DNA of 64,000 nt, from contig JACPSE010000052.1 of assembly GCA_016193465.1 (NCBI GenBank), positions 6,450-70,449 on the forward strand, read 5' to 3'. How positions within the stretch are numbered: position 1 is the first letter of the stretch; the number at the start of each line of letters is the position of its first letter. The notes under the pieces are model-generated. The model was not told the DNA's origin. It saw only the letters and a program-made list of their open reading frames with translations, and searched no databases. The translations under genes and the position numbers were made by a program. Shown here in pieces: positions 14,348-28,701 of the stretch. This DNA is from Deltaproteobacteria bacterium (GTDB lineage: Bacteria; Desulfobacterota; Binatia; UBA9968).

Positions 14348-15451
14348 ATGCTACCCCTTTCAAAGGCTCCCCGCTGCTGGCGCGCGCTCGGGCTGATAGC
14401 TGTTTTCTCCTTTGCCTCCTCCTTTACTTATCAACTTGCCTTGCCCGGAAGAACTATCTCTTTTCCGCGAGACCATTTTTCTCATCCCGATTTTAAGACC
14501 GAGTGGTGGTACTACACGGGCCATTTGGAGACCGAGGGCGGAAAAAAATATGGCTATCAGGTCACCTTCTTTCGTTTCGGCTTGCGCGATCGCCAGAAGC
14601 AAGAGAAAGATAAGGCGCCGCTTTTTACCGAACTCTATCTCGCCCATTTTGCCCTCTCAGACAAACAGGAGAAAAAGTTTCTCTTTCGGGAAAGGGCCAA
14701 CCGCGGTTACAGGGACAAGGCTGGCGCCGCGGTCGATCGCTACCTGGTTTGGAACGAAGAGTGGAAGATCGAGGGCAGCAGGCAGAGCCATATTATGGAA
14801 ATAAAAGATCGGGATGTGGCTTTGAAATTGTACTTGACACCGCTCAAACCGCCGGTTTTGCACGGGGACAGGGGGCTGAGTCAAAAGGGCGAGGGAAAAG
14901 GCAAGGCCTCCTATTATTATTCTTTCACGCGGATGAAGACAGAAGGAGAATTCGAAATTGGGGGAAAGAGAGAAAGAGTTCGGGGTTTGAGCTGGATGGA
15001 CCACGAGTTCGGTAGCAACCAACTGGGAGAAAACCAAGTGGGCTGGGACTGGTTCAGCATCCAGCTCGATAACAAAACGGAGATCATGCTCTATCTGATG
15101 CGCCGGCGGGACGGGTCGCCCGACCCTTATTCCAGTGGCACGTTGATCTATCAAGATGGTTCTACCCGGCATCTTACTCTTGATGATTTTCGCGTGGAAG
15201 TTTTGGAGCGGTGGAAAAGCGTCAAGAGCAGTGGTAACTACCCGATGCGGTGGAGGGTTACGGTCCCATCCGAGCAGATCGAGCTGGAGATTGCGCCGTT
15301 CTTCCGCGAGCAGGAGCTGGACACGCGCAAAAGCACAAGAGTTACTTACTGGGAGGGAAGTGTTGAGGTGCGCGGGAGCTACAAGAAAAGGCCGATTCAG
15401 GGGCTGGGTTATGTGGAGATGACCGGCTATGCGGGGAGATTGAAAGTATAA
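14348..15451 (+). CDS. AttH/CrtC-family lipocalin-fold protein (hydroxyneurosporene-synthase-like), secreted
   Basis: Signal peptide; HFSHPDFKTEWWYYTGH motif characteristic of AttH/CrtC family. Confidence 0.55.
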   Translation: MLPLSKAPRCWRALGLIAVFSFASSFTYQLALPGRTISFPRDHFSHPDFKTEWWYYTGHLETEGGKKYGYQVTFFRFGLRDRQKQEKDKAPLFTELYLAHFALSDKQEKKFLFRERANRGYRDKAGAAVDRYLVWNEEWKIEGSRQSHIMEIKDRDVALKLYLTPLKPPVLHGDRGLSQKGEGKGKASYYYSFTRMKTEGEFEIGGKRERVRGLSWMDHEFGSNQLGENQVGWDWFSIQLDNKTEIMLYLMRRRDGSPDPYSSGTLIYQDGSTRHLTLDDFRVEVLERWKSVKSSGNYPMRWRVTVPSEQIELEIAPFFREQELDTRKSTRVTYWEGSVEVRGSYKKRPIQGLGYVEMTGYAGRLKV

Positions 15452-15481
15452 TAGGGGGTGCGCGGAGGCAGCTCTCCTGTG

Positions 15482-15538
15482 TTGACATTAGAGGGCATCT
15501 GTGTAATACATTCGATAAATTTGTATTACAAAAGGAGG
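15482..15538 (+). promoter_or_regulatory. Sigma70-like promoter (TTGACA-N16-TAATAC) with embedded perfect 8-bp inverted repeat GTAATACA-N11-TGTATTAC (probable VapB operator) and RBS AAGGAGG
   Basis: Read directly: TTGACA 15482-15487, TAATAC 15504-15509, palindrome arms 15503-15510 / 15522-15529, RBS 15532-15538, ATG 15544. Confidence 0.6.
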
Positions 15539-15543
15539 TTTCC

Positions 15544-15789
15544 ATGGCCAAGAGTGTGCGCTTGGATAGTCGGTTGGAATCCCGCTTAGAGCGCGCTGCC
15601 CGAGTTCTGGGAATTTCCCAGTCTGAGCTGATTCGGGAGGCGGTAGCCAAAAGGTGCGAGGAGGTGGTAAGGCCATCCCTGGCTGTGAGGCTGGCCCCGC
15701 TCATTGGGCTTATCAAGACCTCGGGTGGCCGTGCCCGGCATACGGGGATGGCTTTTCGACGGGCTCTGGCTAAGAAGAGGGCGCGATGA
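15544..15789 (+). CDS. vapB: Ribbon-helix-helix antitoxin (VapB/CopG-type)
   Basis: MAKSVRLDSRLESRLERAARVLGISQSELIREAV RHH motif; 4-nt overlap (ATGA) with downstream PIN gene. Confidence 0.8.
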   Translation: MAKSVRLDSRLESRLERAARVLGISQSELIREAVAKRCEEVVRPSLAVRLAPLIGLIKTSGGRARHTGMAFRRALAKKRAR

Positions 15790-16202
15790 TCCTCACGGAT
15801 GCTGGACCGTTGGTGGCCCTTATTGATCGAGGCGAACCTGACCACGGTGCCTGTGTGGCTTGCCTGGATAGGTTCACCGGTCCAATGCTCACCACGTGGC
15901 CGGCGTTCACAGAGGCGATGTATTTATTGGGAGAGGCTGGGGGATGGCGTGCGCAGGAGGCCCTCTGGAGGATCCTTCAGGGTGGTGACCTGGAAATCGC
16001 GCCGCAGGGAGCCGAGCATCACGGGCATATACAGGCTTTAATGCGAAAGTATCGGGACCATCCGATGGATCTGGCCGATGCCTCCCTGGTTTGTTTGGCT
16101 GAAGAGCGAGGCTTTCGGGAGATCTTCACTCTAGACCAACGGGACTTTCATACCTACCGCATCCATGGGCGCCAGACCTTTCGTCTCTGGCCGGCGAAGT
16201 AG
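15786..16202 (+). CDS. vapC: PIN-domain toxin VapC
   Basis: MILTDAGPLVALIDRGEPDH N-terminus with conserved acidic residues of PIN fold; coupled to RHH antitoxin. Confidence 0.8.
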   Translation: MILTDAGPLVALIDRGEPDHGACVACLDRFTGPMLTTWPAFTEAMYLLGEAGGWRAQEALWRILQGGDLEIAPQGAEHHGHIQALMRKYRDHPMDLADASLVCLAEERGFREIFTLDQRDFHTYRIHGRQTFRLWPAK

Positions 16203-16288
16203 TGCTGGAGTTGAAGTACCAGAGACTCGCCTAGGGCCTGGGTTCCATCGAGATGACGGGGTATGTGGGGTTAAGGGCGTAAGATGTA

Positions 16289-16864
16289 ATGACTGAGAAG
16301 GAAAAAACCCTTCTTACGGGTTGTCTAAACGGCGACAAGGCAGCCTGGGATGCCTTCGTCCTGCAGTATTCATCTCTCGTCTATCATACAATCAGAAGGA
16401 CCTTCGGTCTTTATCACTCCGACCCTCGCACCGATCTAGTTGAGGACCTTTTTCAGGAAGTTTTTCTCTCGCTTGTCCAAAACGACTTCAAAAAGCTTCG
16501 TCAGTTCAGAGGTGACCGCGGATGCAGTCTGGCGAGTTGGCTCAGGGTTGTTGCGGCAAGACTGACTATCGATTTCTTGAGAAAACAGGGCGCCCCATCT
16601 GTAGAAGTAACTGAGAGCCTTCCCTCCGGCCAGCCTGACCCGCCAGCTTCGCTAATTGATTTTGAAGAAGAGAAGCTGCTTTCCAAAGCCCTGCGAGGCC
16701 TGCCCCCACGGGACCGTCTTTTCCTTGACCTCTCTTATCGCAGAGAGCTCCCGCCAGAAGAGATTGCTGCTATTCTTCAGGTCTCTGTGAGTGCCGTCTA
16801 TACCCAGAAGAGCCGTGTCTTGGCTAAGTTACGAGAAACACTAAGGAAAGCCGCCGCCCTGTAA
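16289..16864 (+). CDS. ECF-family RNA polymerase sigma-70 factor
   Basis: Region 2 (LVEDLFQEVFLSLVQN...FRGDRGCSLASWLRVVAARLTIDFLR) and region 4 (LPPRDRLFLDLSYRRELPPEEIAAILQVSVSAVYTQKSR) hallmarks; ~190 aa. Confidence 0.85.
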   Translation: MTEKEKTLLTGCLNGDKAAWDAFVLQYSSLVYHTIRRTFGLYHSDPRTDLVEDLFQEVFLSLVQNDFKKLRQFRGDRGCSLASWLRVVAARLTIDFLRKQGAPSVEVTESLPSGQPDPPASLIDFEEEKLLSKALRGLPPRDRLFLDLSYRRELPPEEIAAILQVSVSAVYTQKSRVLAKLRETLRKAAAL

Positions 16865-16887
16865 GAAATCCCCGTTCCTCCCGTCTA
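16860..16887 (+). promoter_or_regulatory. ECF-type promoter TGTAAG-N16-CGTCTA (copy A) upstream of small secreted protein gene
   Basis: Motif positions read from sequence; matches B. subtilis sigmaX/W/M-type consensus TGxAAC-N16/17-CGTC; duplicated at 17271-17298. Confidence 0.55.
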
Positions 16888-16930
16888 TTTGGGCAGGAAG
16901 AAAAAATTTCACCCAAAGGAGGAGGGAACT

Positions 16931-17224
16931 ATGAACAAGGCAACGTTTCTTTGTAGTGTGGCTGTACTGAGCCTAGTGGCAGCGTCGGTACGGCCGGCCA
17001 GCGCTGGCGTGGCAGGTGTTGGATGCGCGGTGGAGATGGCAACGGTCGGGGTACCTGGCCGATCCTGCGCGACTGCGATTGTTACTACTGCTGCACCCTA
17101 TGCAGTGGCAACCGGAGCCTGGCTCCGCAACCGTCGGGACGGCTGGACGTACCGTGAAAATCTTGAGGCCGCCCGGAAATACTTGGACCCGTATCGGGGT
17201 TCCAAGACAGTCCGTAGGAGATAG
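16931..17224 (+). CDS. Small secreted hypothetical protein (signal peptide + ~70-aa Ala/Gly/Val-rich mature part, 3 Cys)
   Basis: Start at MNKATF preceded by AAGGAGGAGGG RBS; signal peptide FLCSVAVLSLVAASVRPASA; track ORF start 16889 lies inside 5'UTR. Confidence 0.5.
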   Translation: MNKATFLCSVAVLSLVAASVRPASAGVAGVGCAVEMATVGVPGRSCATAIVTTAAPYAVATGAWLRNRRDGWTYRENLEAARKYLDPYRGSKTVRRR

Positions 17225-17241
17225 CTGGGGGCAGGGGATGG

Positions 17242-17263
17242 CGGACAGAGATCTTTCTCTGTC
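17242..17263 (+). other. Perfect 9-bp-stem hairpin GGACAGAGA-TCTT-TCTCTGTCC between small-protein gene and second ECF promoter
   Basis: Palindrome read directly; no T-tract following. Confidence 0.4.
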
Positions 17264-17270
17264 CGCCGCC

Positions 17271-17298
17271 TGTAAGAAGTCGGCCGGTTTCCCGTCTA
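17271..17298 (+). promoter_or_regulatory. ECF-type promoter TGTAAG-N16-CGTCTA (copy B) upstream of PLA2-like gene
   Basis: ~70-bp unit CCGCCGCC-TGTAAGAA...CCCGTCTATTTGGGCAG..AAGGAGG..ATG shared with copy A. Confidence 0.55.
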
Positions 17299-17337
17299 TT
17301 TGGGCAGAAAGCCAAAATCTCAGTTAAGGAGGGAGCC

Positions 17338-17853
17338 ATGAGAAATCATAGAATTTTTTCTGGAGTTATTGCTTTTAGCATAGGCATCACGTTGCTAATG
17401 CCCCCTAGTGTGGTCAATGCAATAGGGTGGCCTATTTATGGTAATTGGGGAGGGCCTGGTTGGTCAGGCGGCAGCAACGGGAACAAAGCTCCGTGCGATG
17501 TCATGGATGCTGCATTTATGCGCCACGATATCAAGTACGAGCAGGTAAAGGGGCTATGGAGTAGACTGTCGCTGCTTCAAAGGGCCCGCGCTGTTGCTTT
17601 GGCAGACCAGGAACTGGTAAATGAAGTGTCGGCTATAAACCCTGAGACTTTGCGCGTAACATCAAAGTGTAAAGACCTGCCAAAGAGTAAGGGAGTAAGA
17701 AACGATACGATCAATTACTTTAGGCCAAAGGCGAAGCAAAACCAGGAAGTTGCCAGGATGATCCAGACGGGCGAATGTAAAGATGCCGTTGTGAGCCTAT
17801 ATGGCAACTCTGCCTGTATTCGAAAAACCATCGTACTTGGCAAGAGACGATAG
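17338..17853 (+). CDS. Secreted phospholipase A2-like protein (parvovirus VP1u / bacterial PLA2-like motif)
   Basis: Signal peptide ending VVNA; Ca-loop-like YGNWGGPG and catalytic-like D57-AAF-MR-H63-D64-IK-Y67 (DxxAAxxHDxxY). Confidence 0.55.
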   Translation: MRNHRIFSGVIAFSIGITLLMPPSVVNAIGWPIYGNWGGPGWSGGSNGNKAPCDVMDAAFMRHDIKYEQVKGLWSRLSLLQRARAVALADQELVNEVSAINPETLRVTSKCKDLPKSKGVRNDTINYFRPKAKQNQEVARMIQTGECKDAVVSLYGNSACIRKTIVLGKRR

Positions 17854-17919
17854 GAGTCAGGAAAAATAGCCGCCTATGGAAGCAATAAAGAACGGTGTTG
17901 AAAGACAAAAGGGGCAGAT

Positions 17920-19650
17920 ATGCCGAGCATATTAAAATTAGAATTAGATAGGAAAGCCCTTGAGAAGGTTGCGGCAGGCATCTATATGGCTTTTATCCTT
18001 GCCGGCTGCGCCATGCAGCAGATCAGCGGGCCGACAGGGGTGCTTGAAGGAGAGCGGGTTGGCGGAGGGCCTCTAGTTGACTGCCGTGGCTACTTTTCTC
18101 AGGCAGGGCAGGAGATCAAAGCCAGCATTAATGCGCCTCAAGGTCCGGGTCTGGGTCTCGGGTTTGGTTCAACACCTCTGCTCGCCCTTGACTCGATAAC
18201 TGGCGACATGATCTCGCACTACCAGCGCTACTGCCATCAGTACAATGTTGGACTAATCTCGCGCGAAGAGTTTCTCCGAAAGACGGACATGCTCCATGCC
18301 ACACAGACGGCGATCCGGGCAGTGGTGGGTACTGTCCCTCAACCTCTTCCATCACAAGCGTATCCGGTTGCTACGATGCCCGGCATGGGGCCGCCCATGG
18401 ACCCTAATTTTCCTTCCCCATCACTTGGAAGCGCCATGCCAGGAGGTGGCATGCCTGAGGCTACGTCAAAGTCAATGCAGATGGCGGAATCGATCTTTAG
18501 AATGATCCTTGAGGCCATGCGTCTTGCGCCGGGAGTTAGCAGCCCCCCTCAGTTTCCGCCTACGCCGGGGGCCGGTGGTGGGCCGCAGTTTCCGCCGGGT
18601 CCGCGTCCTTCATATCCTCAACCATACCCTCAACCTGGCAGGCCGCCAATGAGTCTCCCGCCCTCTCCCGTTACTTCTTTGCCTCCCTCCTCCGGACAGG
18701 AGGCTAGTCCAGGTCTAGATGGCCTCTTCAGGTCTGTCGTAGACGAGTTGACGCAAATTTCCCGCGTTCAAGGTGGAATGGGCAGGCCGGTTAGAGCAGT
18801 TCTTGGTGAGATCAGTTACAGAAATACCGAATACGGAAGTCCCCTCAGTCTTTTCTTAAAGGAGCGGTTGCGGGAGCAGCTCACTCGCTCGGGTGACTTC
18901 GTTCTGTTAGAGACTCCCAGGCTACGAGGGATCGGAGGTATCAGCAAGCCTAAGGCAGTAACCGCCCTGGCAGAAAGCTCTGGGGCCGATGTCGTCATTA
19001 GCGGGAATTATTGGGATAATCCGGAGGGGATTGACCTGCTCATCTCAATGCGCGAGAGGAGCGAGGATACGCTCCTGGGGGTTTCCCGCTGCTTGCTCCC
19101 ATCTTCTGTGCTTCCCAAGCAGCCTTCGGCTCCGGCTAACCTTGAAGCGGCGCGGTTGAACGAGCTGCTCGAGGAAAGTATTGCCCCACCCTCGGCTGTT
19201 GATCCCGCCAAGCCTTTAAAGGTGGAGGTTTGGACCGACCGAGGGAAAGGCGCCATCTATACTGAGGGAGAAGAGATGTACGTGATGGTTCGTGTCAGCC
19301 AGGATGCTTACGTGCGCCTCTACTATACAGACGCGAACAAGCAGACCTACCAAATTTTTCCGAACAGTTACCGGCCAGAAAGCAGGGTTCAAGGGGGCTC
19401 GGTGCTCACCATACCTAGCCCAGAAGACCGCTTTGCTTTTCGTGTAAAGGCTCCCTTTGGCGTTGAATCTCTTACCGCCCTGGCCAGCCGCAAGCCCTTT
19501 AAAGAGCCAGAAGGAGCTACTCTTTCTACTGGGCCATTTCAGCGGGTTTCTCAAGGTATGAGGGGCATTGCGGTAGTCTCTTCCTCAGTAGGCGAGGGAG
19601 AAGCCGTTCGGGACAGCACTGTGATGACTACAGTATCTCTCAAACGATAA
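17920..19650 (+). CDS. Lipoprotein: Pro-rich linker + TolB-N/LpoB/FlgO-like scaffold domain + C-terminal DUF4384-like beta-sandwich domain
   Basis: Lipobox ILAGC; low-complexity PQFPPTPGAGGGPQFPPGPRPSYPQPYPQPGRPP; VRAVLGEISYRNTEYGSPLSLFLKERLREQL...ADVVISGNYW pattern; C-terminal VEVWTDRGKG..YVRLYYTDANKQTYQIFPN homologous to 21.9-22.2 kb segment. Confidence 0.55.
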   Translation: MPSILKLELDRKALEKVAAGIYMAFILAGCAMQQISGPTGVLEGERVGGGPLVDCRGYFSQAGQEIKASINAPQGPGLGLGFGSTPLLALDSITGDMISHYQRYCHQYNVGLISREEFLRKTDMLHATQTAIRAVVGTVPQPLPSQAYPVATMPGMGPPMDPNFPSPSLGSAMPGGGMPEATSKSMQMAESIFRMILEAMRLAPGVSSPPQFPPTPGAGGGPQFPPGPRPSYPQPYPQPGRPPMSLPPSPVTSLPPSSGQEASPGLDGLFRSVVDELTQISRVQGGMGRPVRAVLGEISYRNTEYGSPLSLFLKERLREQLTRSGDFVLLETPRLRGIGGISKPKAVTALAESSGADVVISGNYWDNPEGIDLLISMRERSEDTLLGVSRCLLPSSVLPKQPSAPANLEAARLNELLEESIAPPSAVDPAKPLKVEVWTDRGKGAIYTEGEEMYVMVRVSQDAYVRLYYTDANKQTYQIFPNSYRPESRVQGGSVLTIPSPEDRFAFRVKAPFGVESLTALASRKPFKEPEGATLSTGPFQRVSQGMRGIAVVSSSVGEGEAVRDSTVMTTVSLKR

Positions 19651-19674
19651 CGCGGCATTTTTTAGGAGGCAGTT

Positions 19675-20379
19675 TTGATTAACCCAGATGAAGAGACAAT
19701 TGAAAGAATTCTCCGGCACTTGCTAAATAAGAAACAGCGAAGCAGGGAAAGAGTCGGTTGTCCCGAAGAGGAAAGTTTGGCTGGCTACCTTAGCGGTACG
19801 CTGTCGGAAAACGAAAGAGAGAAAATAGAGGTCCATCTCGCCGATTGTTCCAGTTGCTTGAACGAGATTGTCACTGTCCATAAGGCGTCGCAGGAAACGA
19901 TGGCGGAAAAGGTCCCCCAAGACCTTATAGAGAGGGCCATGTCTCTGGTTCGGCCGGCTCGTGGACCAGAGAACTTCCTCGATCTTGTAGTGCGGGTCGT
20001 AAAGGGCTCGCTGGAGCTTGTAAGTACCTCGGGCCGCCCGATTTTAGCTGCCGCGCCGGTTGCTGTCCGAGGAGAAAAGGGTCCTGTGGAGAGCGGCGTC
20101 ATCGAAGTCGAGCAGGGGATGGAGAGATTTAAGGTTGGCGTTGAAGTAGAGCCGGTGGAACCAGGACTTTGCCGGGTTGTTGTTAGCGTGACGGAAGAAG
20201 GACGTGGTGTAGGGGAAAGCCTCCGCATGAGCCTATTTTCAGGGGGGCGTGAGCGGGCCTCCTATCTGGCCCGGGAAGGTAAGATAGCATTTGACCGGAT
20301 TCCCCGAGGAGAATACAATCTGGCCATTTCTGATACCGGGATTCCAGTGGGAACGATTCGATTGAGGTTGATCGAGTGA
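19675..20379 (+). CDS. Anti-sigma factor, zinc-finger (ZAS) type, soluble (no TM helix)
   Basis: TTG start 5 nt after AGGAGG; HLADCSSC = H-x3-C-x2-C ZAS motif near N-terminus; located 3 genes downstream of ECF sigma. Confidence 0.6.
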   Translation: MINPDEETIERILRHLLNKKQRSRERVGCPEEESLAGYLSGTLSENEREKIEVHLADCSSCLNEIVTVHKASQETMAEKVPQDLIERAMSLVRPARGPENFLDLVVRVVKGSLELVSTSGRPILAAAPVAVRGEKGPVESGVIEVEQGMERFKVGVEVEPVEPGLCRVVVSVTEEGRGVGESLRMSLFSGGRERASYLAREGKIAFDRIPRGEYNLAISDTGIPVGTIRLRLIE

Positions 20380-20417: not shown

Positions 20418-22394
20418 GTGAGCGACAGAGATCTTGTCCTGGAGGTTTCTCGTGAAGATCAAAGAATAAAGGTTAGTGTTTACGAGAAGACCGAAAGGGG
20501 TGAGCGGACCCTCCGTCCATACGAGGACTCGGAAGTATCCTGGACACAGGTCGAAAAAAGTTGTCAGGAAATTATTGGGCTGCTCAACCGCGCCAATAAA
20601 CGCGCCGGAATCCCGCCGGAAATCTTAGTTGACCTCAAAAAGTCCGGGCAGATCCTTTTTGATCTCTTAATCCCACCCAAAGCAAAAGAAAAACTAAATT
20701 CCACCACGGCCACAAACCTCATCCTTTATTTGGACGATAGGCTGGTCCATATCCCGTGGGAGCTCCTTTTCGGCGGTCGCAATTTCTTCTGCCGCCGCTT
20801 TGCTATGGGCAGGATCGTCAGCACCCGTCAGGCACTCACCTCTTCATCAAGCCGAAGCTTAAAGGCTCCCTTCAAAGTACTAGTCCTAGCCGATCCCCGT
20901 GGGAACCTAGAGGCTTCCTACCGTGAAGGGTTGGATGTAAAAGACTTCCTGGACGACAAGAGGGAAACCTTTCACGTCGATTTCAAAAGCGACCCGATAG
21001 ATATTCCCTTTGTCAAGAAAAATCTCCGCGACTACGACATTGTCCATTATTCGGGTCACGCCGACTATCGGGCGGAAAATCCCTCAGATAGCGGCTGGCT
21101 ATTAAGTGACGGGAGGCTCAGGGCAAGCGAGATTTCCGCTATGGGCGGGCTTCAGCCCATGCCTTTCTTAGTTTTCTCCAACGCCTGCCAAAGCGGCCAG
21201 ACAGGGGAGTGGCAAATCCAAGAAGGGTACGAGCAGCAGATCTTCGGACTTGCCAATGCTTATCTCCTGTCAGGAGTGCAGCACTACATTGGGACTTTTT
21301 GGGAAATTCTTGATGAACCTAGCTGTCAGTTTGCCAAGAGTTTCTACGGTTACTTGGCTCTGGGCGAAAAGGTCGGCGAGGCGGTCCGTAGGGCGCGTGA
21401 GGATCTCATCAAGGCCTACGGAGAGGAGACTATCGTTTGGGCCAGTTATATGCTCTATGGCGACCCGACATTTGAATTTCTTTCTGCCGCCCAGGAAGCT
21501 TCCGAGAAAACAGGAGTACGTGAGTCTACTCCGGCAGAGCAAAGTTCCTCTTTTCTCTATCCACTCCTCGGTGTCTTTTTGCTGGCCTTGGCCATTGCTG
21601 GCTACTTCATCTTCTATCCTAAAGCCTCTCAAGAGGAAGAGGCAAAGACTGAGGCGGTGGAGAAAGTTGAATCCAAACAGCCGGTAACCACGGCAGAAGT
21701 CAAAAAACTTCCAGAGGTTGTAAAACCAAAAGAATCTACCACCATTGCAAAGCCTCAAGAGAGTTTGCCTCCAGCAGAAACGAAACAGGAAGTAGCTTCA
21801 AAAAAAGAGCCTGCTCCGCCTGTAGTTGCTGCACCTCTAAGTCTGAGCATGAACATCATTGGCCAGAGGAAAGAAGCTGATGGTCGTTACGCCGAAGTTG
21901 TGATCGGCGAGGGAAGCATTCTCCGCTCTTATGACAATTTGCAGGTGCACCTAGAGACCAACCGTCCTGCGTACGTGTATATCCTCCTGTACGACAGCCA
22001 GGGTAGAGCCAGCCAGATTTTTCCTGATCCCAAAATTGATCAGGGAGAGTTTGTTGAAGGCGAGAGAAAGATCGTGGTTCCATCTAAGGATCTCTGGTTC
22101 TGGCTGGATGAAAACCCTGGCACAGAAACTATTTATGTGCTGGCCTCCGAAAAACCCATGTCGGATATCAGAGGATTACTTGCGAGAATGGAAGCGACAG
22201 ACGACGCCGGAAAGAAGCGCTTCTCCGAAGAGATCAGGCAGAGAATTGGTGTTATGCAACGTGGCGTTGCCGTTGTCGCCAAGGGCCAACCGGCCGTCTA
22301 TACGTTGAGTGGTGGAAAGAGGATTGAGAAGGTGACCGAGGTGGTCACCGGAACTGGATCAGTGGTGAGGGCGGTAAGTTTTCAGCATAGATAA
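20418..22394 (+). CDS. CHAT-domain (caspase-like) protease – single TM helix – DUF4384-like domain – conserved ~65-aa C-terminal tail
   Basis: CHAT dyad motifs DIVHYSGHADY (His) and FLVFSNACQSG (Cys); TM FLYPLLGVFLLALAIAGYFIFY (~21540-21615); K/E/P-rich linker; AYVYILLYDSQGRASQIFPD DUF4384-like; tail ...GVMQRGVAVVAKGQPAVYTLSGGKRIEKVTEVVTGTGSVVRAVSFQHR. Confidence 0.7.
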   Translation: MSDRDLVLEVSREDQRIKVSVYEKTERGERTLRPYEDSEVSWTQVEKSCQEIIGLLNRANKRAGIPPEILVDLKKSGQILFDLLIPPKAKEKLNSTTATNLILYLDDRLVHIPWELLFGGRNFFCRRFAMGRIVSTRQALTSSSSRSLKAPFKVLVLADPRGNLEASYREGLDVKDFLDDKRETFHVDFKSDPIDIPFVKKNLRDYDIVHYSGHADYRAENPSDSGWLLSDGRLRASEISAMGGLQPMPFLVFSNACQSGQTGEWQIQEGYEQQIFGLANAYLLSGVQHYIGTFWEILDEPSCQFAKSFYGYLALGEKVGEAVRRAREDLIKAYGEETIVWASYMLYGDPTFEFLSAAQEASEKTGVRESTPAEQSSSFLYPLLGVFLLALAIAGYFIFYPKASQEEEAKTEAVEKVESKQPVTTAEVKKLPEVVKPKESTTIAKPQESLPPAETKQEVASKKEPAPPVVAAPLSLSMNIIGQRKEADGRYAEVVIGEGSILRSYDNLQVHLETNRPAYVYILLYDSQGRASQIFPDPKIDQGEFVEGERKIVVPSKDLWFWLDENPGTETIYVLASEKPMSDIRGLLARMEATDDAGKKRFSEEIRQRIGVMQRGVAVVAKGQPAVYTLSGGKRIEKVTEVVTGTGSVVRAVSFQHR

Positions 22395-22465: not shown

Positions 22466-25396
22466 ATGTGGATTTTGTTAGCTGATGTTGCTTTGAGATA
22501 TTTGAGCGCGTTGGGATGTATTCGCGCTCGGAGAGATTTCCTATTGTGCAACACTGTTGTTGCTCTTTTGAGCCTGAGCGGCTGCGTGTTGGGCGATCCC
22601 TATGCCACGGGTAGCAGGACTGCTTCAATAGTACGCGTACGCCATGCGCGCTTTGCACGGGAGCTTCCTCCAACAGGAGGCTCGATTCAAGATGCTGATC
22701 TTCCACCGTCCGTTGAAGAATTTTATAACGACCGCGATTCCCACGTATACTTTCTCTTCGCAATGAACCGTCCATTCAAAAACCTGCCCATACAGATTGA
22801 ATGGTTTGACCCTAATGACCGTTTGTATCAAGCTGATACACGGATTACCGGCTGTGTGCGGTGTTCGTGGTGGTGGACTTCAAGCTTTGTGCGTAGTGAG
22901 AAGGTTGCTGACCGCCTTGGCGAGTGGAAAGTAGTTGTATCCACCAAAGGCGAAACTGTAGGTACCTACAAGTTTAGACTTTTGACCGGGGAGAGAGCCC
23001 AGGCCGAACCTCGTTTCACGAAGAGCTATCCGCTATCCATTCTTGCCGCTGCAGAGACAGTTCGAAAAGGCAGAGGTAGCGAAGCCCTTGCCTACTACGA
23101 GTCTCTTGGGCAGGAATCTATTAAGCTAGGAAAGACTCGTGACGCTGGTTTTGCGTACATACTGGCTGCCACTGTCGCGTTATATAGCGGCAATTTTCAT
23201 ACAGCTGTCAATCACTCCTTGAAGAGTTTGGATATCGTTAGGAACCTAAAAGGTAACCACGAGATCACATACCAGGCTTATTTGAAACTAGTTTTGGCAT
23301 TTCTCGAGATTGGCGAGTTTAACGGTGCGAGGTACTACGCGAATCTTATGATGGGGCTCGCGTCAAGTCATACTGATCTTCAATTTAGGGAAAGGCGCTT
23401 GGCTGATAGCCACTGGTATCTGGCTCGGGTTGATGGAGCGCTTGGGAATCACGAGGGTGCAATTGCAAACCTTCTCAGGGCAAAAGGGATATACGAGAAA
23501 CTAATTGACTGGTCGCGGAAGGGGCGCTTGATCGAGATTTCGAATTATTTCTACACCCTCAGCGCGCTTGGTGAGGCGTACTTAAATCAGGGCAATCTTC
23601 AAGAGGCAAAAATATTTTTTGAGCTTGCTATCGATCCACATAAGATATTAGGGAGACGAGTCGTAACAGTAGTTCCGCGAATAGGACTCGGGCGCATTGC
23701 GATGCTTGAGGGGGACTTGGAGGAGGCTAAATATTATTTTAGGGACGCGTTGCGGCGAAGCCGTCGGACCGGAAGACCTTTCCTTATTGCTCGCGCTCTG
23801 CATGGACTAGGACAAACGTACATGCGCCTTGGTCAATGGAAGGAGGGCGTCTCTTTTCTGAAAGAAGCCGCGAGTTACGTGGAAGATATGAGGTCTTCTC
23901 TGAAGGTTGGGGAACTGAGGCAAACGTTCTTAGAGGGGAGGGTATCAGTTTACCGTGATCTCGTTTTAGCGCTGAGGACCTTAGGGGAAGATTCTGATGC
24001 CTTTCACTACGCTGAGCGAGGAAAGGCTCGCGCCTTCTTGGATGTCCTTGCAGCGAAAGTAGCTTTAGCGGATGACGAAAGGGAATTGCGCGAGAAGCTC
24101 GCTGCGCTCCAATTTATAGAGGAAGACGGTGAGACAGGAGTCTCAGGCGAAGAAGTCGAGGCTACAAAAAGAGCTTACAATGACTTTTTAGCCAAGCTGC
24201 GTGAGGAGAATGCCGAGCGGGCGTCATTGATGACGGTGGACCCGCTTAGTTTGAAAGAAGTGCAAAAGCTGTTGGACGCAAAGCAGATCTTGCTCGAATA
24301 TTTTGTTGCGGATGAGAAAACGTTCCTTTGGGTGGTTGGCAAAGATAGCTTTTATGGCTTAACCATCGCGACCCCTCGCAAAGACCTTGTCGGCAGAGTT
24401 AACTCCCTTAGAAAGCTCACATCCGAAATCGGGTCGTTAAGGGAGTACCAGAGAATAGCGGCTGAGCTTTACGATCTCCTCATCCAACCTGCGTTGCCTT
24501 ATGTTAAAGATAAGGAACTCATCATTGTCCCCCATGAGGTCCTCCATTACGTACCCTTTCAGGCGCTGTACTCGAGTCAGGGTAAATATCTTATTGAAGA
24601 CGCCCCCGTGAGCTACCTCTCTAGCGCCAGTCTACTTCAGTTTGTCAAAGAGAAGAGGAAGGCGAAGGGAGACCTGTCTGCCGTGCTGGCACAAGCAGGG
24701 AAGGTCTTGGCCTTTGGGAATCCAGATTTGGGAGATCCGCAAAAGGACTTGCAGTTTGCGGAGTTAGAGGCAGGAGAGGTCAGGAGGCTTTATCCCAAGT
24801 CCAGTGTGTACGTGAGGAAGGAGGCTACGGAGGAAAAGGCGAAGGGCTTATCATCTCAGTATGACATCCTTCACTTTGCCACCCATGCGGAGCTAAAGGA
24901 GGATGATCCTTTATCATCGGCGGTGCTGTTAGCCAAGAACGGCAAAGAAGATGGGAGACTGGAGGTGAGGGAGGTCTTTGGGATGGATTTGAAGGCTAGT
25001 CTGGTAGTGCTCAGTGCGTGTGAGACCGGGTTAGGGAAGCTGTCTACGGGGGATGAGTTGGTAGGACTGACCAGGGCTTTTATTTATGCTGGGACCCCAT
25101 CTGTGGTGGCGAGTCTGTGGAAGGTGGAGGACAGTTCTACAGCGGCGCTGATGGCCAGTTTTTACAAGAATCTTAAGACCATGACTAAGGTGGAGGCCTT
25201 AAGGCAGGCGCAATTGGAGTTGATACGGGGGCAAGCAAGTAGCGACTTACTGGCGAGGAGAGGAGTAGGAGGGATAGGGAGGCTGGGGGAGGTTCCTACG
25301 GGGGAACCCCAATCCCCGACCCCTGGCCCCGTCTCTATCTCCACCGCTCATCCTTACTTTTGGGCACCGTTTATCTTGGTGGGGGATGGGACATAG
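22466..25396 (+). CDS. TPR-repeat + CHAT-domain protease, lipoprotein (paralog 1)
   Basis: Lipobox LSLSGC; TPR-like helical repeats through middle; C-terminal CHAT with ILHFATHAELKEDDP (His) and VVLSACETG (Cys), ...HPYFWAPFILVGDG end; start codon uncertain (alternative TTG ~22544). Confidence 0.75.
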   Translation: MWILLADVALRYLSALGCIRARRDFLLCNTVVALLSLSGCVLGDPYATGSRTASIVRVRHARFARELPPTGGSIQDADLPPSVEEFYNDRDSHVYFLFAMNRPFKNLPIQIEWFDPNDRLYQADTRITGCVRCSWWWTSSFVRSEKVADRLGEWKVVVSTKGETVGTYKFRLLTGERAQAEPRFTKSYPLSILAAAETVRKGRGSEALAYYESLGQESIKLGKTRDAGFAYILAATVALYSGNFHTAVNHSLKSLDIVRNLKGNHEITYQAYLKLVLAFLEIGEFNGARYYANLMMGLASSHTDLQFRERRLADSHWYLARVDGALGNHEGAIANLLRAKGIYEKLIDWSRKGRLIEISNYFYTLSALGEAYLNQGNLQEAKIFFELAIDPHKILGRRVVTVVPRIGLGRIAMLEGDLEEAKYYFRDALRRSRRTGRPFLIARALHGLGQTYMRLGQWKEGVSFLKEAASYVEDMRSSLKVGELRQTFLEGRVSVYRDLVLALRTLGEDSDAFHYAERGKARAFLDVLAAKVALADDERELREKLAALQFIEEDGETGVSGEEVEATKRAYNDFLAKLREENAERASLMTVDPLSLKEVQKLLDAKQILLEYFVADEKTFLWVVGKDSFYGLTIATPRKDLVGRVNSLRKLTSEIGSLREYQRIAAELYDLLIQPALPYVKDKELIIVPHEVLHYVPFQALYSSQGKYLIEDAPVSYLSSASLLQFVKEKRKAKGDLSAVLAQAGKVLAFGNPDLGDPQKDLQFAELEAGEVRRLYPKSSVYVRKEATEEKAKGLSSQYDILHFATHAELKEDDPLSSAVLLAKNGKEDGRLEVREVFGMDLKASLVVLSACETGLGKLSTGDELVGLTRAFIYAGTPSVVASLWKVEDSSTAALMASFYKNLKTMTKVEALRQAQLELIRGQASSDLLARRGVGGIGRLGEVPTGEPQSPTPGPVSISTAHPYFWAPFILVGDGT

Positions 25397-25432
25397 CAAA
25401 AGGATCGAGACTGGGAGATCCTCGGCGACATC

Positions 25433-28012
25433 ATGAACAGGCTGAGTGAGACAAGAAGATCAAAGAGTAAATATGCTGCCTGGATAACAGCTGTCCTAGC
25501 GCTATTCTTGGCCTCCGGTTGTGCTATCCCCGACCCTAATTTTGAGGTCAGAGAGGGTGCTGTCTTTTATACTCGCCGGGCTCTTTCACGGGGAAAAATT
25601 AAAGAGGCACTGGCTTTTTATGAGTCTGAGGCTCGGACGGCAGAAGAAAACGCGGCGGCTAGTTTCTTTCCTCAACAGTATTGGGATGCTGCAGCTAGGG
25701 CGTACATAGAGGCGGCTAGAGCGGCCCGATTTAATGGGGATTTGCAAAAGTCGATTACCCACGCAAAGAAGGCGCTCGAGGCGGCTGAGAAGGCAAAGAG
25801 CCCCGAGCTTCAAATTGGTGCAATTAGTAATCTCATTTTGCCCTTAAGATCAATCAGGGATTTTGATCAGGTCAGTCCACTGATAGAAAAAGGCTTAAAA
25901 ATTGTAGAGGAAATTCCAACTAACACCAATCGCCGTCTCAGTCGGGAAAGTTCTTTATACGAGCATCTGGGTAAGGATCTTGTTCGTCGGCGAGAATATG
26001 AGCAAGCCATTGTTGCTTTTACCCGCGCTCTTTATTTACAGCAAGACTGGCTGGCTGACCTTTACCGGTGGTTTAGGAAGGACCACCCTTACATAGAAGT
26101 AGCTCGCGTCGGCATTATCCTCAAGATGGAGGCTTTAGGCGATGCCTATCGTCGAGCAGGCCGATTGCAAGACGCACTGCAACAATATGAACGCGCCTTC
26201 AATTTCATAAAAGAGTGGGGATTAAGATATCCTTATGAAAACGCATTGCATCAGGGCATGGGAGAAATCTTTTGGCAGAAGAAGGATTTTCATCAGGCCC
26301 TCGAGCAATTTAACCTAGCCCTAACTTTAGCTGAGAAGCAACAGAGGCCGAACGTGATCAGGTCTGCGAGCCTTCGTATTGCTGACATTTTGGGGCGAAC
26401 GGGCAAGGCTGCCGATGCTATCTCTTACTACCAGAAAGCCATCCAGCAAATCGAGTCTGTCCGCTCTCTCATCACGACTGAGGAATACAGGGGATCCTAT
26501 TTTGCGGGGGGCCTAAGTGCTTACGCCGGTATGACAAGGGCTCTTCTAGACGTAGGTAAGCAAGAGGAGGCCTTTAATTATACTGAGCGCTCACGTTCGC
26601 GGGTCTTCCTGGATGTATTGGGTAGTAAGGTGCAACTGTCGGGAATAAAGGGCGGGCTACTGGCGGAGGAGAGAACTTTAAAGGAGAGGATTGTCTCGAT
26701 CAGGACGAGGTTAGGAGGTCGAGATGGGGAAACAAATGAAGACGGGCAAACGGCGAGGGCGATACTAAGAAGGGAGTTAAGGGAGGCGGAAAGGGCCTAT
26801 GCCGATTTTTTTACTAGGGTCAGGAAGGAAAACAAAGAGCAGGCCTCTTTGATGACAGTTGAGCCTTTGACCGTTAAGGAAGTCCAGGAGTTGCTTGATC
26901 CAGGGGCCACGTTGATTGAGTACTTTGTGACTGAGCGGGAAATCTTTGCCTGGGTTGTCGAGAAAGACAAGGTTCGGTTTGTCAGAGTTGAGCTTCCCAG
27001 AAAGAAGCGTGCTGGCCTGGTTAAGAGCCTGCGGGAGACCATTTTTGCTCTGGGCGATAAGGATAAATTTAGGGTAGCCTCTACTGTTCTCTATCAGCAC
27101 CTCATTGAGGGAATTCTTCCATATGTCACTGGCAAGGAATTAATCATCGTTCCCCACGATGTCCTTCACTACCTTCCATTCCATGCCCTGGTTAGTCCTG
27201 ATGGTCGTTATTTGATCGAGAAGTATCCTATTTACTACCTCTCTAGTGCCAGCCTGCTTCAGTTTACCAAGGAGAAGAGAAAGGCAAAGGGGGACCTGTC
27301 TGCCGTGCTGGCACAGGCAGGGAGGGTTTTGGCCTTTGGGAATCCGGATTTGGGAGATCCTGATAAGGAGTTAAAGTTTGCGGAGTTAGAGGCTCAGGAG
27401 GTTCAGAGACTCTATCCTCAGTCCACCGTGCTTCTGAAGAGGGAGGCCACGGAGGAGAAGGGCAAAACCCTTTCACCGCAGCATGACATACTTCATTTTG
27501 CCACCCATGCGAAGCTGAACGAGGATGATCCGTTATCTTCAGCGATACTCTTAGCCAAGGATGGCACGGAGGATGGGAGGCTGGAGGTAAGAGAGATCTT
27601 CGGAATGGATTTAAAAGCAAATCTGGTAGTTTTAAGTGCCTGTGAGACGGGGTTAGGGAAGCTTTCCACAGGAGATGAGATTGTCGGGTTGACCAGGGCC
27701 TTTATTTATGCAGGCACCCCATCAGTGGTGGCCAGCCTGTGGAAGGTGGAGGATAGTTCTACAGCCTACCTGATGGCCAGCTTTTACAAGAATCTCAGGA
27801 CCATGTCTAAGGTGGAGGCCTTAAGGCAGGCCCAGTTGGAGTTGATCAGGGGACAGGCGAGTAGTGACTTGCTAGCCAGGAGAGGGGTAGGAGGGATAGG
27901 GAGGCTGGGGGAGGTGCCAGAGGCCAAACCCCAATCCCTGGCCCCTGTCTCTGTCTCTACTTCTCACCCCTACTTCTGGGCTCCGTTTATATTGGTGGGA
28001 GATGGGAAGTGA
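25433..28012 (+). CDS. TPR-repeat + CHAT-domain protease, lipoprotein (paralog 2)
   Basis: Classic lipoprotein signal MNRLSETRRSKSKYAAWITAVLALFLASGC; TPR region; CHAT C-terminus ~90% identical to paralogs incl. identical DNA tracts. Confidence 0.8.
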   Translation: MNRLSETRRSKSKYAAWITAVLALFLASGCAIPDPNFEVREGAVFYTRRALSRGKIKEALAFYESEARTAEENAAASFFPQQYWDAAARAYIEAARAARFNGDLQKSITHAKKALEAAEKAKSPELQIGAISNLILPLRSIRDFDQVSPLIEKGLKIVEEIPTNTNRRLSRESSLYEHLGKDLVRRREYEQAIVAFTRALYLQQDWLADLYRWFRKDHPYIEVARVGIILKMEALGDAYRRAGRLQDALQQYERAFNFIKEWGLRYPYENALHQGMGEIFWQKKDFHQALEQFNLALTLAEKQQRPNVIRSASLRIADILGRTGKAADAISYYQKAIQQIESVRSLITTEEYRGSYFAGGLSAYAGMTRALLDVGKQEEAFNYTERSRSRVFLDVLGSKVQLSGIKGGLLAEERTLKERIVSIRTRLGGRDGETNEDGQTARAILRRELREAERAYADFFTRVRKENKEQASLMTVEPLTVKEVQELLDPGATLIEYFVTEREIFAWVVEKDKVRFVRVELPRKKRAGLVKSLRETIFALGDKDKFRVASTVLYQHLIEGILPYVTGKELIIVPHDVLHYLPFHALVSPDGRYLIEKYPIYYLSSASLLQFTKEKRKAKGDLSAVLAQAGRVLAFGNPDLGDPDKELKFAELEAQEVQRLYPQSTVLLKREATEEKGKTLSPQHDILHFATHAKLNEDDPLSSAILLAKDGTEDGRLEVREIFGMDLKANLVVLSACETGLGKLSTGDEIVGLTRAFIYAGTPSVVASLWKVEDSSTAYLMASFYKNLRTMSKVEALRQAQLELIRGQASSDLLARRGVGGIGRLGEVPEAKPQSLAPVSVSTSHPYFWAPFILVGDGK

Positions 28013-28029
28013 TAGTATTGTAACGGCCA

Positions 28030-28687: not shown

Positions 28688-28701
28688 TTTAAAGAGGACT
28701 G

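Follow-up and report, generated by a model that had tools for sequence, protein, structure and literature searches.

The window, i.e. the whole 64-kb stretch of DNA that was analysed, derives from an uncultured MAG and carries a gene for an ECF sigma factor followed on the same strand by a series of genes for predicted secreted and envelope proteins, a zf-HC2 anti-sigma factor and a CHAT protease (Table 1). The sigma factor consists of the sigma2 and sigma4 domains only (Sigma70_r2 and r4_2) and scores 99.5 bits against the NCBIfam model for ECF sigma70 factors (TIGR02937, cut-off 42.9). It reaches the cut-off of no specific NCBIfam sigma subfamily (SigW, 45.6 vs 209; SigX, 39.9 vs 260; SigE, also below). 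No published ECF group could be assigned to it, as NCBIfam gives the ECF superfamily only; CHAT and DUF4384 go unmentioned in the main text of Casas-Pastor 2021. A database search returned 507 homologues, hundreds of them at 60–85% identity and possibly including paralogues. In related loci, the sigma ATG abuts the stop codon of a crtC-like gene.

Table 1. Annotated and predicted features of the sigma factor locus (positions in the window).
Feature	Position	Strand	Basis and remarks
ECF sigma factor gene, 191 aa	16289..16864	+	Pfam Sigma70_r2, r4_2, r4; TAA 16862-16864 inside promoter A -35 box
Promoter A -35 box, predicted, TGTAAGAA	16860..16867	+	built from cTG Leu191, TAA stop, GAA; logo positions 0-7
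Promoter A -10 box, predicted, CGTCTATT	16882..16889	+	logo positions 22-29
Predicted start A16895 and 36-nt leader of sp97 gene	16895..16930	+	start placed at conserved purine; Shine–Dalgarno AAGGAGG 16916-16922
sp97, 97-aa secreted protein	16931..17224	+	ORF; hydrophobic segment 4-28 then ASA
Perfect 12-bp stem-loop GGCGGACAGAGA-TCTT-TCTCTGTCCGCC	17240..17267	+	inverted-repeat search; between sp97 and promoter B
Promoter B -35 box, predicted, TGTAAGAA	17271..17278	+	pattern match and logo
Promoter B -10 box, predicted, CGTCTATT	17293..17300	+	pattern match and logo
Predicted start A17306 and 32-nt leader	17306..17337	+	start placed at conserved purine; Shine–Dalgarno AAGGAGG 17326-17332
sp171, 171-aa secreted protein	17338..17853	+	ORF; signal-like segment 6-29 then VNA
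DUF4384 protein, 576 aa, lipoprotein-type N-terminus (LAGC)	17920..19650	+	Pfam DUF4384 E 1e-23; hydrophobic segment 17-35
Anti-sigma factor, 234 aa, zf-HC2	19675..20379	+	Pfam PF13490 E 3.3e-7, residues 33-61
CHAT protease, C-terminal DUF4384, 658 aa	20418..22394	+	Pfam CHAT E 1e-36, DUF4384 E 4e-15; one transmembrane segment 375-404

The first two genes after the sigma gene, which we label sp97 and sp171, encode proteins with N-terminal signal-peptide-like segments, in agreement with an earlier note on this DNA that had called them secreted. Sp97 belongs to no Pfam or NCBIfam family. For sp171, similarity to phospholipase A2 was considered and is not claimed, because the matches are sub-threshold only (PF08398, E 0.075; PDB 1po8, E 1.1). 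The anti-sigma factor has no transmembrane or hydrophobic segment (maximum KD19 1.15). A PADLOC run on ten proteins of the operon identified no defence system, with weak TPR and BovA-like matches only.

Each of the two secreted-protein genes is preceded by a copy of the same short unit, lying about 40 nt 5′ of the Shine–Dalgarno sequence and ATG. Exactly two TGTAAG-N16-CGTCTA sites occur in the 64-kb window, at 16860 and 17271. Relaxing the spacer (TGTAAG-N14-18-CGTCTA) leaves two matches against 0.00 expected (100 shuffles, both strands), and a looser flexible-spacer pattern finds the same two sites and no others; the much looser GTAAG-N15-17-CGTC is not significant alone (2 found vs 0.58 expected). 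Copy A (CCTGTAAGAAATCCCCGTTCCTCCCGTCTATTTGGGCAGGAAGAAAAAATTTCACCCAAAGGAGGAGGGAACTATG, starting at 16858, ATG at 16931) and copy B (CCTGTAAGAAGTCGGCCGGTTTCCCGTCTATTTGGGCAGAAAGCCAAAATCTCAGTTAAGGAGGGAGCCATG, starting at 17269, ATG at 17338) form the longest direct repeat of the region, with 73% ungapped identity over 67 nt at a distance of 411 nt. Their MAFFT alignment shows the identical blocks CCTGTAAGAA and TCCCGTCTATTTGGGCAG with a diverged spacer between them. The duplicated unit described in the earlier note is thereby borne out, as are the identical 16-nt spacing of its two elements and the start of copy A within the last sigma codons, where the stop codon of the sigma gene supplies the TAA of TGTAAG. 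The scan for further sites that the note had proposed, run over the window, returned only the two known ones.

Other details of that description need adjustment. The distance from CGTCTA to the ATG, given as about 40 nt and the same in both copies, is indeed near that value but not equal (43 nt in A, 39 nt in B). The boxes are shared as described, while the exact letters upstream of them are not: copy A reads CCGCCGCCC and copy B CCGCCGCC. Nor does CCGCCGCC form part of the motif, as logo positions -12 to -1 carry at most 0.65 bit (76 instances, see below). Its equivalent in copy A encodes the C-terminus of the sigma factor (AAAL), and in copy B it is the 3′ arm of the perfect hairpin between sp97 and promoter B. 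This hairpin folds at -32 kcal/mol (z -5.8), is followed by no U-tract and was not called by an intrinsic-terminator scan; it may represent a transcript 3′ end or an insulator. By RNA folding, both leaders are unstructured (z 0.12 for A, 0.8 for B). Rfam at permissive E-values gave chance-level matches only across 16000-18500, none of them on the units, and a scan for sigma70-type promoters found nothing at either copy.

The motif recurs beside this sigma family well beyond the window. Thirteen seeds gave a 40-nt matrix, which was used at a threshold of ≥20 bits to scan both strands of 92 loci (471 kb) encoding sigma homologues at 43–100% identity. The scan yielded 87 matches, where the threshold predicts about one; 86 of the 87 lie on the sigma strand, and all are located at or downstream of the sigma 3′ end. 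The seeds included the window's own copies, a choice on which the position and strand bias at the other loci does not depend. Because copies with a 15-nt spacer (found in L084-L086 of our numbered loci) escaped the ungapped matrix, these counts are lower bounds, and the stop-codon counts were therefore taken with the flexible-spacer pattern. In 48 of 85 loci, as in the window, the TAA stop codon of the sigma gene falls within the -35 box (G-TAA-GA), and in eight more the box lies at most 25 nt away. The remaining 29 close loci show no motif near the sigma stop with this pattern, most of them being rearranged or degenerate on inspection. Copies also exist away from sigma 3′ ends, namely copy B and second or third copies 0.2–4.4 kb downstream.

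A logo of 76 non-redundant instances consists of two blocks, TGTAAGAAat and CCGTCTATT, separated by an unconserved 12-nt gap. Information content is 1.2–1.9 bits at -35 positions 0-7 and 1.4–1.9 bits at -10 positions 22-29; in the gap, most positions carry ≤0.6 bit, except that the last four bases before the -10 box reach about 1 bit. AAG stands in the -35 box of 75 of the 76 instances, and the counts for CGTC in the -10 box are C 75, G 75, T 67 and C 76. Conservation extends past the -10 hexamer (TATTTGGGCAG) to a purine 7–8 nt after it, 35 nt after the T of TGTAAG (A in 59 and G in 14 of 76). Among instances with a downstream ORF called, start codons with a Shine–Dalgarno sequence mostly follow 30–45 nt after the -10 box. 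The motif stands beside this sigma gene in well over 100 related loci, and its logo has the anatomy of an ECF promoter.

In Omnitrophota and Planctomycetota, more distant sigma homologues (31–42% identity) are accompanied by a variant, GTTAGA...CGTCTATT, in the same place. This variant (GTTAGAttt-N12-aCGTCTATT) was found in 54 of 67 distant loci, with the TAG stop codon of the sigma gene inside GT-TAG-A in 17 of the 54, and a zf-HC2 orthologue of 233–236 aa comes next. The -10 box varies along with the sigma factor as well: between loci with CGAC and those with CGTC, only sigma columns 64, 68 and 69 discriminate fully, all in sigma2 just before the FRGD loop, in a comparison of 6 sequences with 49 in which the six may be a single clade. 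Upstream of the sigma gene, a side of the locus on which the earlier note was silent, the matrix has no match in the 92 loci (flanks to 6 kb), and a loose pattern gives 11 chance-like matches within 400 nt upstream, against 82 downstream (88 loci). A literature search for the motif strings found no paper describing TGTAAGA...CGTCTA. The idea of a sigma-dependent small RNA between two promoters (L100, L103, L111-L118, L124) was dropped because the intervals of 130–270 nt are unconserved and resemble repeat-element insertions.

The genes behind the promoter form a conserved module. The order sigma, anti-sigma, CHAT is kept in 61 of 61 loci, the CHAT protease being the third gene of the module; in relatives, the zf-HC2 anti-sigma gene is usually the first gene after the promoter. 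The gene behind the promoter is an anti-sigma orthologue in about 33 instances, and many others encode signal-peptide proteins or lipoproteins. The canonical target of the predicted promoter is the anti-sigma gene, which the earlier note had passed over. In the window, sigma and anti-sigma are split by a 2.76-kb insert, which comprises two secreted-protein genes, the gene for the DUF4384 lipoprotein and promoter copy B, an arrangement that, judged by the relatives, is a derived form. The 576-aa DUF4384 gene is absent from L081, L084, L087 and L090, and the anti-sigma gene keeps its ancestral Shine–Dalgarno sequence and start (AGGAGGCAGTTTTG, 19664-19677). In its leader, copy B matches the ancestral one of the anti-sigma gene in relatives (aligned with L084 and L087); copy A matches sp97-type genes in this part. 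"Duplicated" is right as a description, but the two copies, whose leaders match different leader families, are no simple recent tandem duplicate. The same promoter precedes sp97 homologues in L095 (82%) and L009 (37%); the sp97-hairpin block is also present in L095, and in L009 a 15-bp hairpin follows the sp97 homologue.

We consider it highly likely that each unit is a promoter for RNA polymerase carrying the ECF sigma factor encoded just upstream, and that the short leader after it is unstructured and bears a strong Shine–Dalgarno sequence. Recurrence of the motif at the 3′ end of the sigma gene in well over 100 loci makes the units very probably this sigma factor's own target promoters, so that comparative evidence strongly supports the earlier note in its proposal that the adjacent sigma serves both. 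Promoter A, overlapping the sigma stop codon, would transcribe sp97, with transcription probably ending or pausing at the hairpin. From promoter B, transcription would cover sp171 and, by presumed read-through, extend into the genes for the DUF4384 lipoprotein, the anti-sigma factor (zf-HC2) and the CHAT-DUF4384 protease, all on the same strand with gaps of 24–66 nt. The anti-sigma gene lies 2.3 kb beyond promoter B and is probably transcribed by such read-through, which we assume here. The sigma gene itself is apparently transcribed from upstream genes. The resulting circuit would couple sigma-dependent synthesis of the sigma factor's own inhibitor to that of envelope proteins. With no motif upstream of the sigma gene and the anti-sigma gene downstream, this would amount to negative feedback without positive autoregulation. 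The element is thus of an ordinary kind, an ECF promoter, and the predicted wiring is what is unusual: negative feedback only, from a promoter embedded in a stop codon.

Could a different ECF sigma factor, encoded elsewhere in the genome and possibly a paralogue, read these promoters instead of the adjacent one? ECF sigmas with similar boxes do share promoters, e.g. sigmaM, sigmaW and sigmaX of Bacillus subtilis (as cited in PMC6767563), and the many homologues at 60–85% identity may include paralogues. Furthermore, the sp97-hairpin block is 98% identical in L095, where the sigma factor is only 65% identical, so promoters do move between sigma contexts. Yet motif and sigma family are physically linked across several phyla, the motif shifts together with the family (GTAAGA to GTTAGA, and CGTC to CGAC along with the sigma2 residues), and no other sigma gene lies near the two sites in the window. 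We therefore regard reading by another sigma factor as improbable.

Somewhat less probable still is that the units are no promoters at all, and serve as a regulator binding site, as a recombination or insertion site that captures gene cassettes, or as a 3′-end signal of the sigma mRNA. Insertions do cluster here (e.g. the 2.76-kb insert of the window), duplicated fragments of the sigma 3′ end carry the motif in L082, L093, L083 and L147, and the 98% identical block stops inside the -35 box of copy B; an insertion hot spot is, however, compatible with a promoter role. The conservation past the -10 hexamer, a further point in favour of such a role, also fits a discriminator and a CA start site. 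Several features speak against this reading: the motif is bipartite and non-palindromic, with its boxes always 16 nt apart and a spacer that is not conserved; it stands on a single strand, 30–45 nt before a start codon in most instances with a called ORF; it occurs away from sigma 3′ ends as well; and no RNA structure is predicted for it. Had a 5′ region recently been duplicated in tandem, leaving two neutral copies without a regulatory role, the 73% identity over 67 nt in two adjacent intergenic regions would be accounted for. The pattern of conservation already contradicts this reading, which has very little left to recommend it. The matching letters cluster in the boxes, around the start site and in the Shine–Dalgarno sequence, with a diverged spacer; the proteins encoded downstream are not related to each other; the blocks recur, conserved, in 76 independent instances; and each leader resembles a different leader family elsewhere.

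Read as promoters of the adjacent sigma factor, the units can be set against known ECF systems. Classical features, as reviewed in PMC8103513, comprise a -35 AAC, a -10 CGT, fixed spacing, a two-domain sigma factor with an anti-sigma factor, positive autoregulation, and sigma-dependent transcription from a few nt past the -10 box, where the window family has its conserved purine. Promoters of Streptomyces coelicolor sigmaE, for example, read GGAAC-N16/17-CGTCT, and -10 elements of the CGTCT type have been validated (PMC6767563). The window units resemble these and those of B. subtilis sigmaW/X/M in being bipartite, with a 16-nt spacer and a -10 containing CGTC(T), in preceding genes for envelope or secreted proteins, and in adjoining a gene for a sigma2 plus sigma4 factor with a zf-HC2 anti-sigma factor. 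The -10 CGT is present and extended to the invariant CGTCTATT; the spacer is unconserved and fixed at 16 nt in both copies, with a 15-nt variant in a few loci; and the zf-HC2 anti-sigma gene lies downstream, directly adjacent in relatives. In contrast, the -35 box TGTAAGAA has AAG in place of AAC (TAG in the distant variant GTTAGA), and no copy precedes the sigma gene (88 loci within 400 nt, flanks to 6 kb, and the 64-kb window), where positive autoregulation would place one. The earlier note's match to the consensus of the Bacillus sigmaX/W/M promoters thus holds as a resemblance only: the box differs, and by its NCBIfam scores the sigma factor belongs to neither the SigW nor the SigX family.

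A promoter within a sigma gene has a precedent in Escherichia coli, where rseA P3, a sigmaE-dependent promoter in the rpoE coding region, transcribes rseABC (PMC8595263, citing Rhodius 2006). The likeness is one of position: in both cases a sigma-dependent promoter, predicted in ours, overlaps the sigma gene and drives the anti-sigma gene without sigma, giving extra negative feedback. The E. coli promoter is 228 nt away from rseA on its upstream side, its leader is long and structured, and rpoE has an autoregulated upstream promoter as well, whereas the window family has the stop codon inside the -35 box, an unstructured leader of about 30–36 nt, no autoregulatory copy found and clade-wide conservation.

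The gene content recalls DdvS/DdvA of Myxococcus xanthus, an ECF sigma factor and a zf-HC2 anti-sigma factor fused to a periplasmic TPR-CHAT part (PMC6061681, PMC11506125). Both loci combine an ECF sigma factor, a zinc-finger anti-sigma factor with its zf-HC2 domain N-terminal, and a CHAT protease, with several sigma-dependent promoters nearby (predicted in the window). DdvA is one transmembrane protein, whereas here the anti-sigma factor is a separate soluble protein of 234 aa; the CHAT protein is a separate membrane protein with its CHAT domain N-terminal of the single helix, and thus probably cytoplasmic, and with DUF4384 on the C-terminal side. DdvS/DdvA is autoregulated, since PddvSA lies upstream of ddvS, and the window locus has no CBASS or CRISPR genes. 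In the type III-E CRISPR module Csx29 (TPR-CHAT)/Csx30/RpoE, some Csx30 C-terminal domains are DUF4384 (bioRxiv 10.1101/2022.08.17.504292). There, too, a CHAT protease is linked with an ECF sigma factor and a sigma-binding partner, which we take as an analogy of logic only: the window has neither Cas7-11 nor a CRISPR array, and its anti-sigma factor is of the zf-HC2 type, not Csx30.

Taking these strands together, we speculate about a wider picture that, as a joint proposal, we hold to be rather less probable than even. Binatia-like "Deltaproteobacteria", Omnitrophota and Planctomycetota may share clade-wide modules of a sigma factor, a soluble zf-HC2 anti-sigma factor and a membrane CHAT protein, regulated by negative feedback only via a -35 box that includes the stop codon of the sigma gene (G-TAA-GA or GT-TAG-A). 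The promoter copies might in addition act as recombination points for cassettes of secreted-protein genes (as with the 2.76-kb insert and the 98% identical sp97-hairpin block of L095), and the CHAT protease could free the sigma factor by cleaving the soluble anti-sigma factor.

For the family itself, the prediction supplies a widespread, uncharacterised group of ECF sigma factors with a concrete target promoter, TGTAAGAA-N14-CGTCTATT, and with its first putative regulon members: the anti-sigma factor, the CHAT protease and secreted or envelope proteins. Motif discovery restricted to the regions upstream of sigma operons relies on autoregulation (PMC7826278). Such a search would probably miss this family, because its promoter sits on the sigma stop codon and the feedback acts on the inhibitor only. 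Finally, the conserved sigma/anti-sigma/CHAT module could extend protease-controlled ECF signalling, so far represented by DdvA and Csx29-Csx30, to several little-studied phyla.

Two copies of a repeat (67 nt, 73% identity without gaps) occupy the gaps on either side of the gene for sp97 (a predicted secreted protein of 97 aa): copy A, with its motif at 16860, precedes sp97, and copy B (17271) precedes the gene for sp171 (a second one, of 171 aa). In the alignment, the two copies agree mainly at CCTGTAAGAA, TCCCGTCTATTTGGGCAG, the Shine-Dalgarno sequence and a few bases of the leader, and they differ over the 12–14 nt between the boxes. TGTAAG-N16-CGTCTA has exactly two matches in the 64-kb window (0.00 expected), and a flexible-spacer pattern finds no site there beyond copies A and B. 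The duplicated promoter/leader unit claimed in an earlier note is thus present, with minor corrections. Copy A does start within the last codons of the ECF sigma gene, as the stop codon of that gene (TAA, 16862-16864) is the TAA within TGTAAG.

Gene layout of the locus carrying copies A and B
Feature	Position	Size	Strand
crtC-like lipocalin gene	14348-15451		
RHH-antitoxin/PIN-toxin pair (vapBC)	15544-16202 (region 15453-16288)		
ECF sigma gene	16289-16864		+
Gap between sigma and sp97		66 nt	+
sp97 ORF	16931-17224	97 aa	+
Gap between sp97 and sp171		113 nt	+
sp171 ORF	17338-17853	171 aa	+
DUF4384 protein	17920-19650	576 aa	+
zf-HC2 anti-sigma factor	19675-20379	234 aa	+
CHAT-DUF4384 protein	20418-22394	658 aa	+
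Three TPR-CHAT paralogues and PIN protein	after CHAT-DUF4384 gene		+

The sigma factor has 507 homologues in the database, from Deltaproteobacteria and Binatia MAGs and labelled only 'sigma-70 family'. Our comparative sample comprised 80 loci from genomes and 80 from metagenomes. A 40-nt matrix derived from 13 instances was run at a cut-off of at least 20 bits over both strands of 92 loci (471 kb) with sigma factors 43–100% identical, resulting in 87 matches, 86 of them on the sigma strand and none upstream of sigma. The logo of 76 non-redundant instances reads TGTAAGAAat-N12-ctcCCGTCTATTtgg.cAgAa, with 1.2–1.9 bits per position in both blocks, mostly at most 0.6 bit in the spacer and ~1 bit in the four bases directly before the -10 box. 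Purines predominate 35 nt past the first T (A in 59 and G in 14 of the 76). As judged from sequence, the arrangement is that of an ECF promoter whose start would lie 7–8 nt past the -10 hexamer, so transcription is predicted to begin at A16895 and A17306, giving leaders of 36 and 32 nt. These leaders are unstructured upon folding and match no Rfam family. Most instances with a callable downstream ORF have a start codon with Shine-Dalgarno sequence 30–45 nt after the -10 box. Of the genes downstream, about 33 are orthologous to the window anti-sigma gene, and many others code for signal-peptide or lipoprotein products. In five loci (L001, L003, L120, L123, L129), the sigma-stop promoter is followed by a conserved ~373-aa lipoprotein (N-terminal pattern MR.L..LFL.L...CAP..EMIQN...KARVAVSRF) and not by the anti-sigma factor.

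The position of the promoter is shared as well. Among 85 usable loci, 48 have the sigma stop as the TAA within G-TAA-GA, as in the window, and in 8 more the box begins within 25 nt past the sigma stop; on inspection, several of the remaining loci show at this site a copy that is degenerate or has a 15-nt spacer, and others are rearranged. Sigma homologues from Omnitrophota and Planctomycetota (31–42% identity) carry the variant GTTAGAttt-N12-aCGTCTATT at the sigma 3′ end in 54 of 67 loci, with the TAG stop inside GT-TAG-A in 17 and the box inside the coding sequence in 26. The gene behind it encodes a 233–236-aa zf-HC2 protein, orthologous to the window anti-sigma factor. Five Omnitrophota loci (L016 5884(-), L033 866(-), L044 5840(-), L066 3613(-), L070 230(-)) have an extra variant copy, GTTAGAAA...CGTCTATT, 117–161 nt upstream of sigma on the opposite strand; four of these precede a divergent gene, possibly for an IS200-like transposase, whose product begins MPRG.RIL or M.R.QRLII. 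In L017 4226(-), L018 2650(-) and L023 4439(-), where sigma is ~38% identical, the opposite strand carries a different conserved element, GTAAG(T/G)AT-N..-CGTC(C/G)GTTTTCGACA, ~300 nt ahead of sigma.

Comparative conservation and the strand and position bias across these loci support the proposal that the copies are ECF promoter units of the adjacent sigma factor. The motif variant tracks sigma lineage (GTAAGA versus GTTAGA). Within the close family, only three sigma columns discriminate fully between loci with CGAC (6) and CGTC (49) -10 boxes: residues 64, 68 and 69, which belong to sigma2, directly ahead of the FRGD loop; no sigma4 column does so. This covariation supports a motif–sigma link short of proof, because the sample is small and perhaps represents one clade. 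In its working the element would be like a classical ECF promoter, with a CGTCT -10 box matching, for example, validated Streptomyces sigmaE promoters (PMC6767563); of the suggested match to Bacillus sigmaX/W/M promoters, only a resemblance stands.

In 88 loci, the 400 nt preceding sigma contain no motif; a loose pattern gives 11 chance-like matches there, versus 82 over the corresponding distance downstream. In some relatives (L088 and L094, for example), the crtC-like lipocalin stop and the sigma ATG overlap directly (TAATG), so the two genes are probably co-transcribed. In the window, vapBC is inserted between them, and a diverged second copy of the crtC 3′ end (~55–60 nt; repeats at about 15395-15452 and 16226-16288) lies just before the sigma ATG. 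Sigma would be expressed from an upstream, non-cognate promoter; once free, it would switch on the genes for its inhibitor, the CHAT protease and envelope proteins, so that the circuit would have negative feedback but no positive autoregulation. Predictions put the share of ECFs that lack autoregulation at about 45%, so its absence here is unexceptional in itself. For this wiring the nearest precedent is E. coli rseA P3, which lies within rpoE, depends on sigmaE and transcribes rseABC (PMC8595263); P3, however, is accessory to an autoregulated promoter and lies 228 nt upstream of rseA. We infer sigma dependence, the start sites, termination at a hairpin between sp97 and promoter B, transcription running on into the anti-sigma gene, and what the CHAT protease does.

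Both sp97 and sp171 have an N-terminal hydrophobic segment followed by ASA and VNA, respectively, and calling them secreted, as the earlier note did, is a reasonable prediction. The DUF4384 protein has an LAGC lipobox. In sp171, YGNWGGPGWSGG...D..F.RHD..Y recalls the calcium loop and His-Asp site of phospholipase A2, with sub-threshold matches only (PF08398, E 0.075; PDB 1po8, E 1.1). The anti-sigma factor lacks a transmembrane segment, and CHAT-DUF4384 has one (375-404), with the CHAT domain N-terminal to it. Every one of the 61 loci (L002-L141, several phyla) in which all three genes are detectable has them in the order sigma, anti-sigma, CHAT protease; the architecture of the protease (transmembrane helix, C-terminal DUF4384) is that of the window copy. 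This module corresponds, in split form, to DdvA (PMC11506125), an anti-sigma/TPR-CHAT fusion protein, and we met no literature description of it in the form found here. By analogy with DdvA and Csx29-Csx30-RpoE (bioRxiv 10.1101/2022.08.17.504292), it is attractive to propose that the membrane CHAT protease would cleave the soluble anti-sigma factor.

In L081, L084, L087 and L090, the anti-sigma gene directly follows sigma and the promoter; the window differs from them by 2.76 kb of additional sequence (16901-19660) between the promoter A start-site region and the retained anti-sigma Shine-Dalgarno/start AGGAGGCAGTTTTG. Within this insert lie the sp97, sp171 and DUF4384 lipoprotein genes, together with promoter B and a perfect 12-bp hairpin (-32 kcal/mol, z -5.8). 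The copy B leader (GGGCAGAAAGCCAAAATCTCAGTTAAGGAGG) is similar to that of the anti-sigma gene in L084 and L087, and the copy A leader to those of sp97-type genes in L009 and L095; A and B are therefore two regulon promoters of different history and did not arise by a simple, recent tandem duplication. L095 has the window layout (sigma, promoter, sp97, hairpin, promoter). Its DNA is ~98% identical over the mature sp97 region, hairpin and promoter B -35 box (about 17020-17285 in the window, 2590-2855 in L095) with much more diverged flanks, next to a sigma protein only 65% identical, which points to a promoter-flanked cassette that was recently recombined or transferred.

Duplicated sigma 3′-end fragments (~120–145 nt; L082 3457-3599, L093 6385-6527, L083 1927-2073, L147 2917-3034) lie ~0.9 kb downstream of intact sigma, in L082 and L093 continuing into a promoter copy with the anti-sigma gene still behind it; they are another sign that this site is an insertion hot spot. 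Loci L100, L103, L111-L115, L118 and L124 have two promoter copies 130–270 nt apart between sigma and anti-sigma, without a convincing ORF. A small RNA was considered here and rejected: the intervals are unconserved and repeat-like (e.g. CTCAGCGCCTCCGCGGTGAG) and look like insertions. Further downstream in the window, the TPR-CHAT paralogues are 47–63% identical to one another. The gap ahead of the third holds a 74-aa fragment (28693-28914) with 72% identity to the CHAT-DUF4384 C-terminus, which points to an insertion of TPR-CHAT1, TPR-CHAT2 and the PIN gene (22466-28497) that duplicated the flanking gene end.

Neither the motif nor an ECF promoter embedded in a stop codon was found described in the searchable literature, which excludes the ECF Hub and the 2021 classification supplements. 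The duplicated unit is real, and the comparative evidence supports the original reading. ECF promoters themselves are already known, and it is the clade-wide architecture, a promoter placed on the sigma stop, that would be the distinctive feature.
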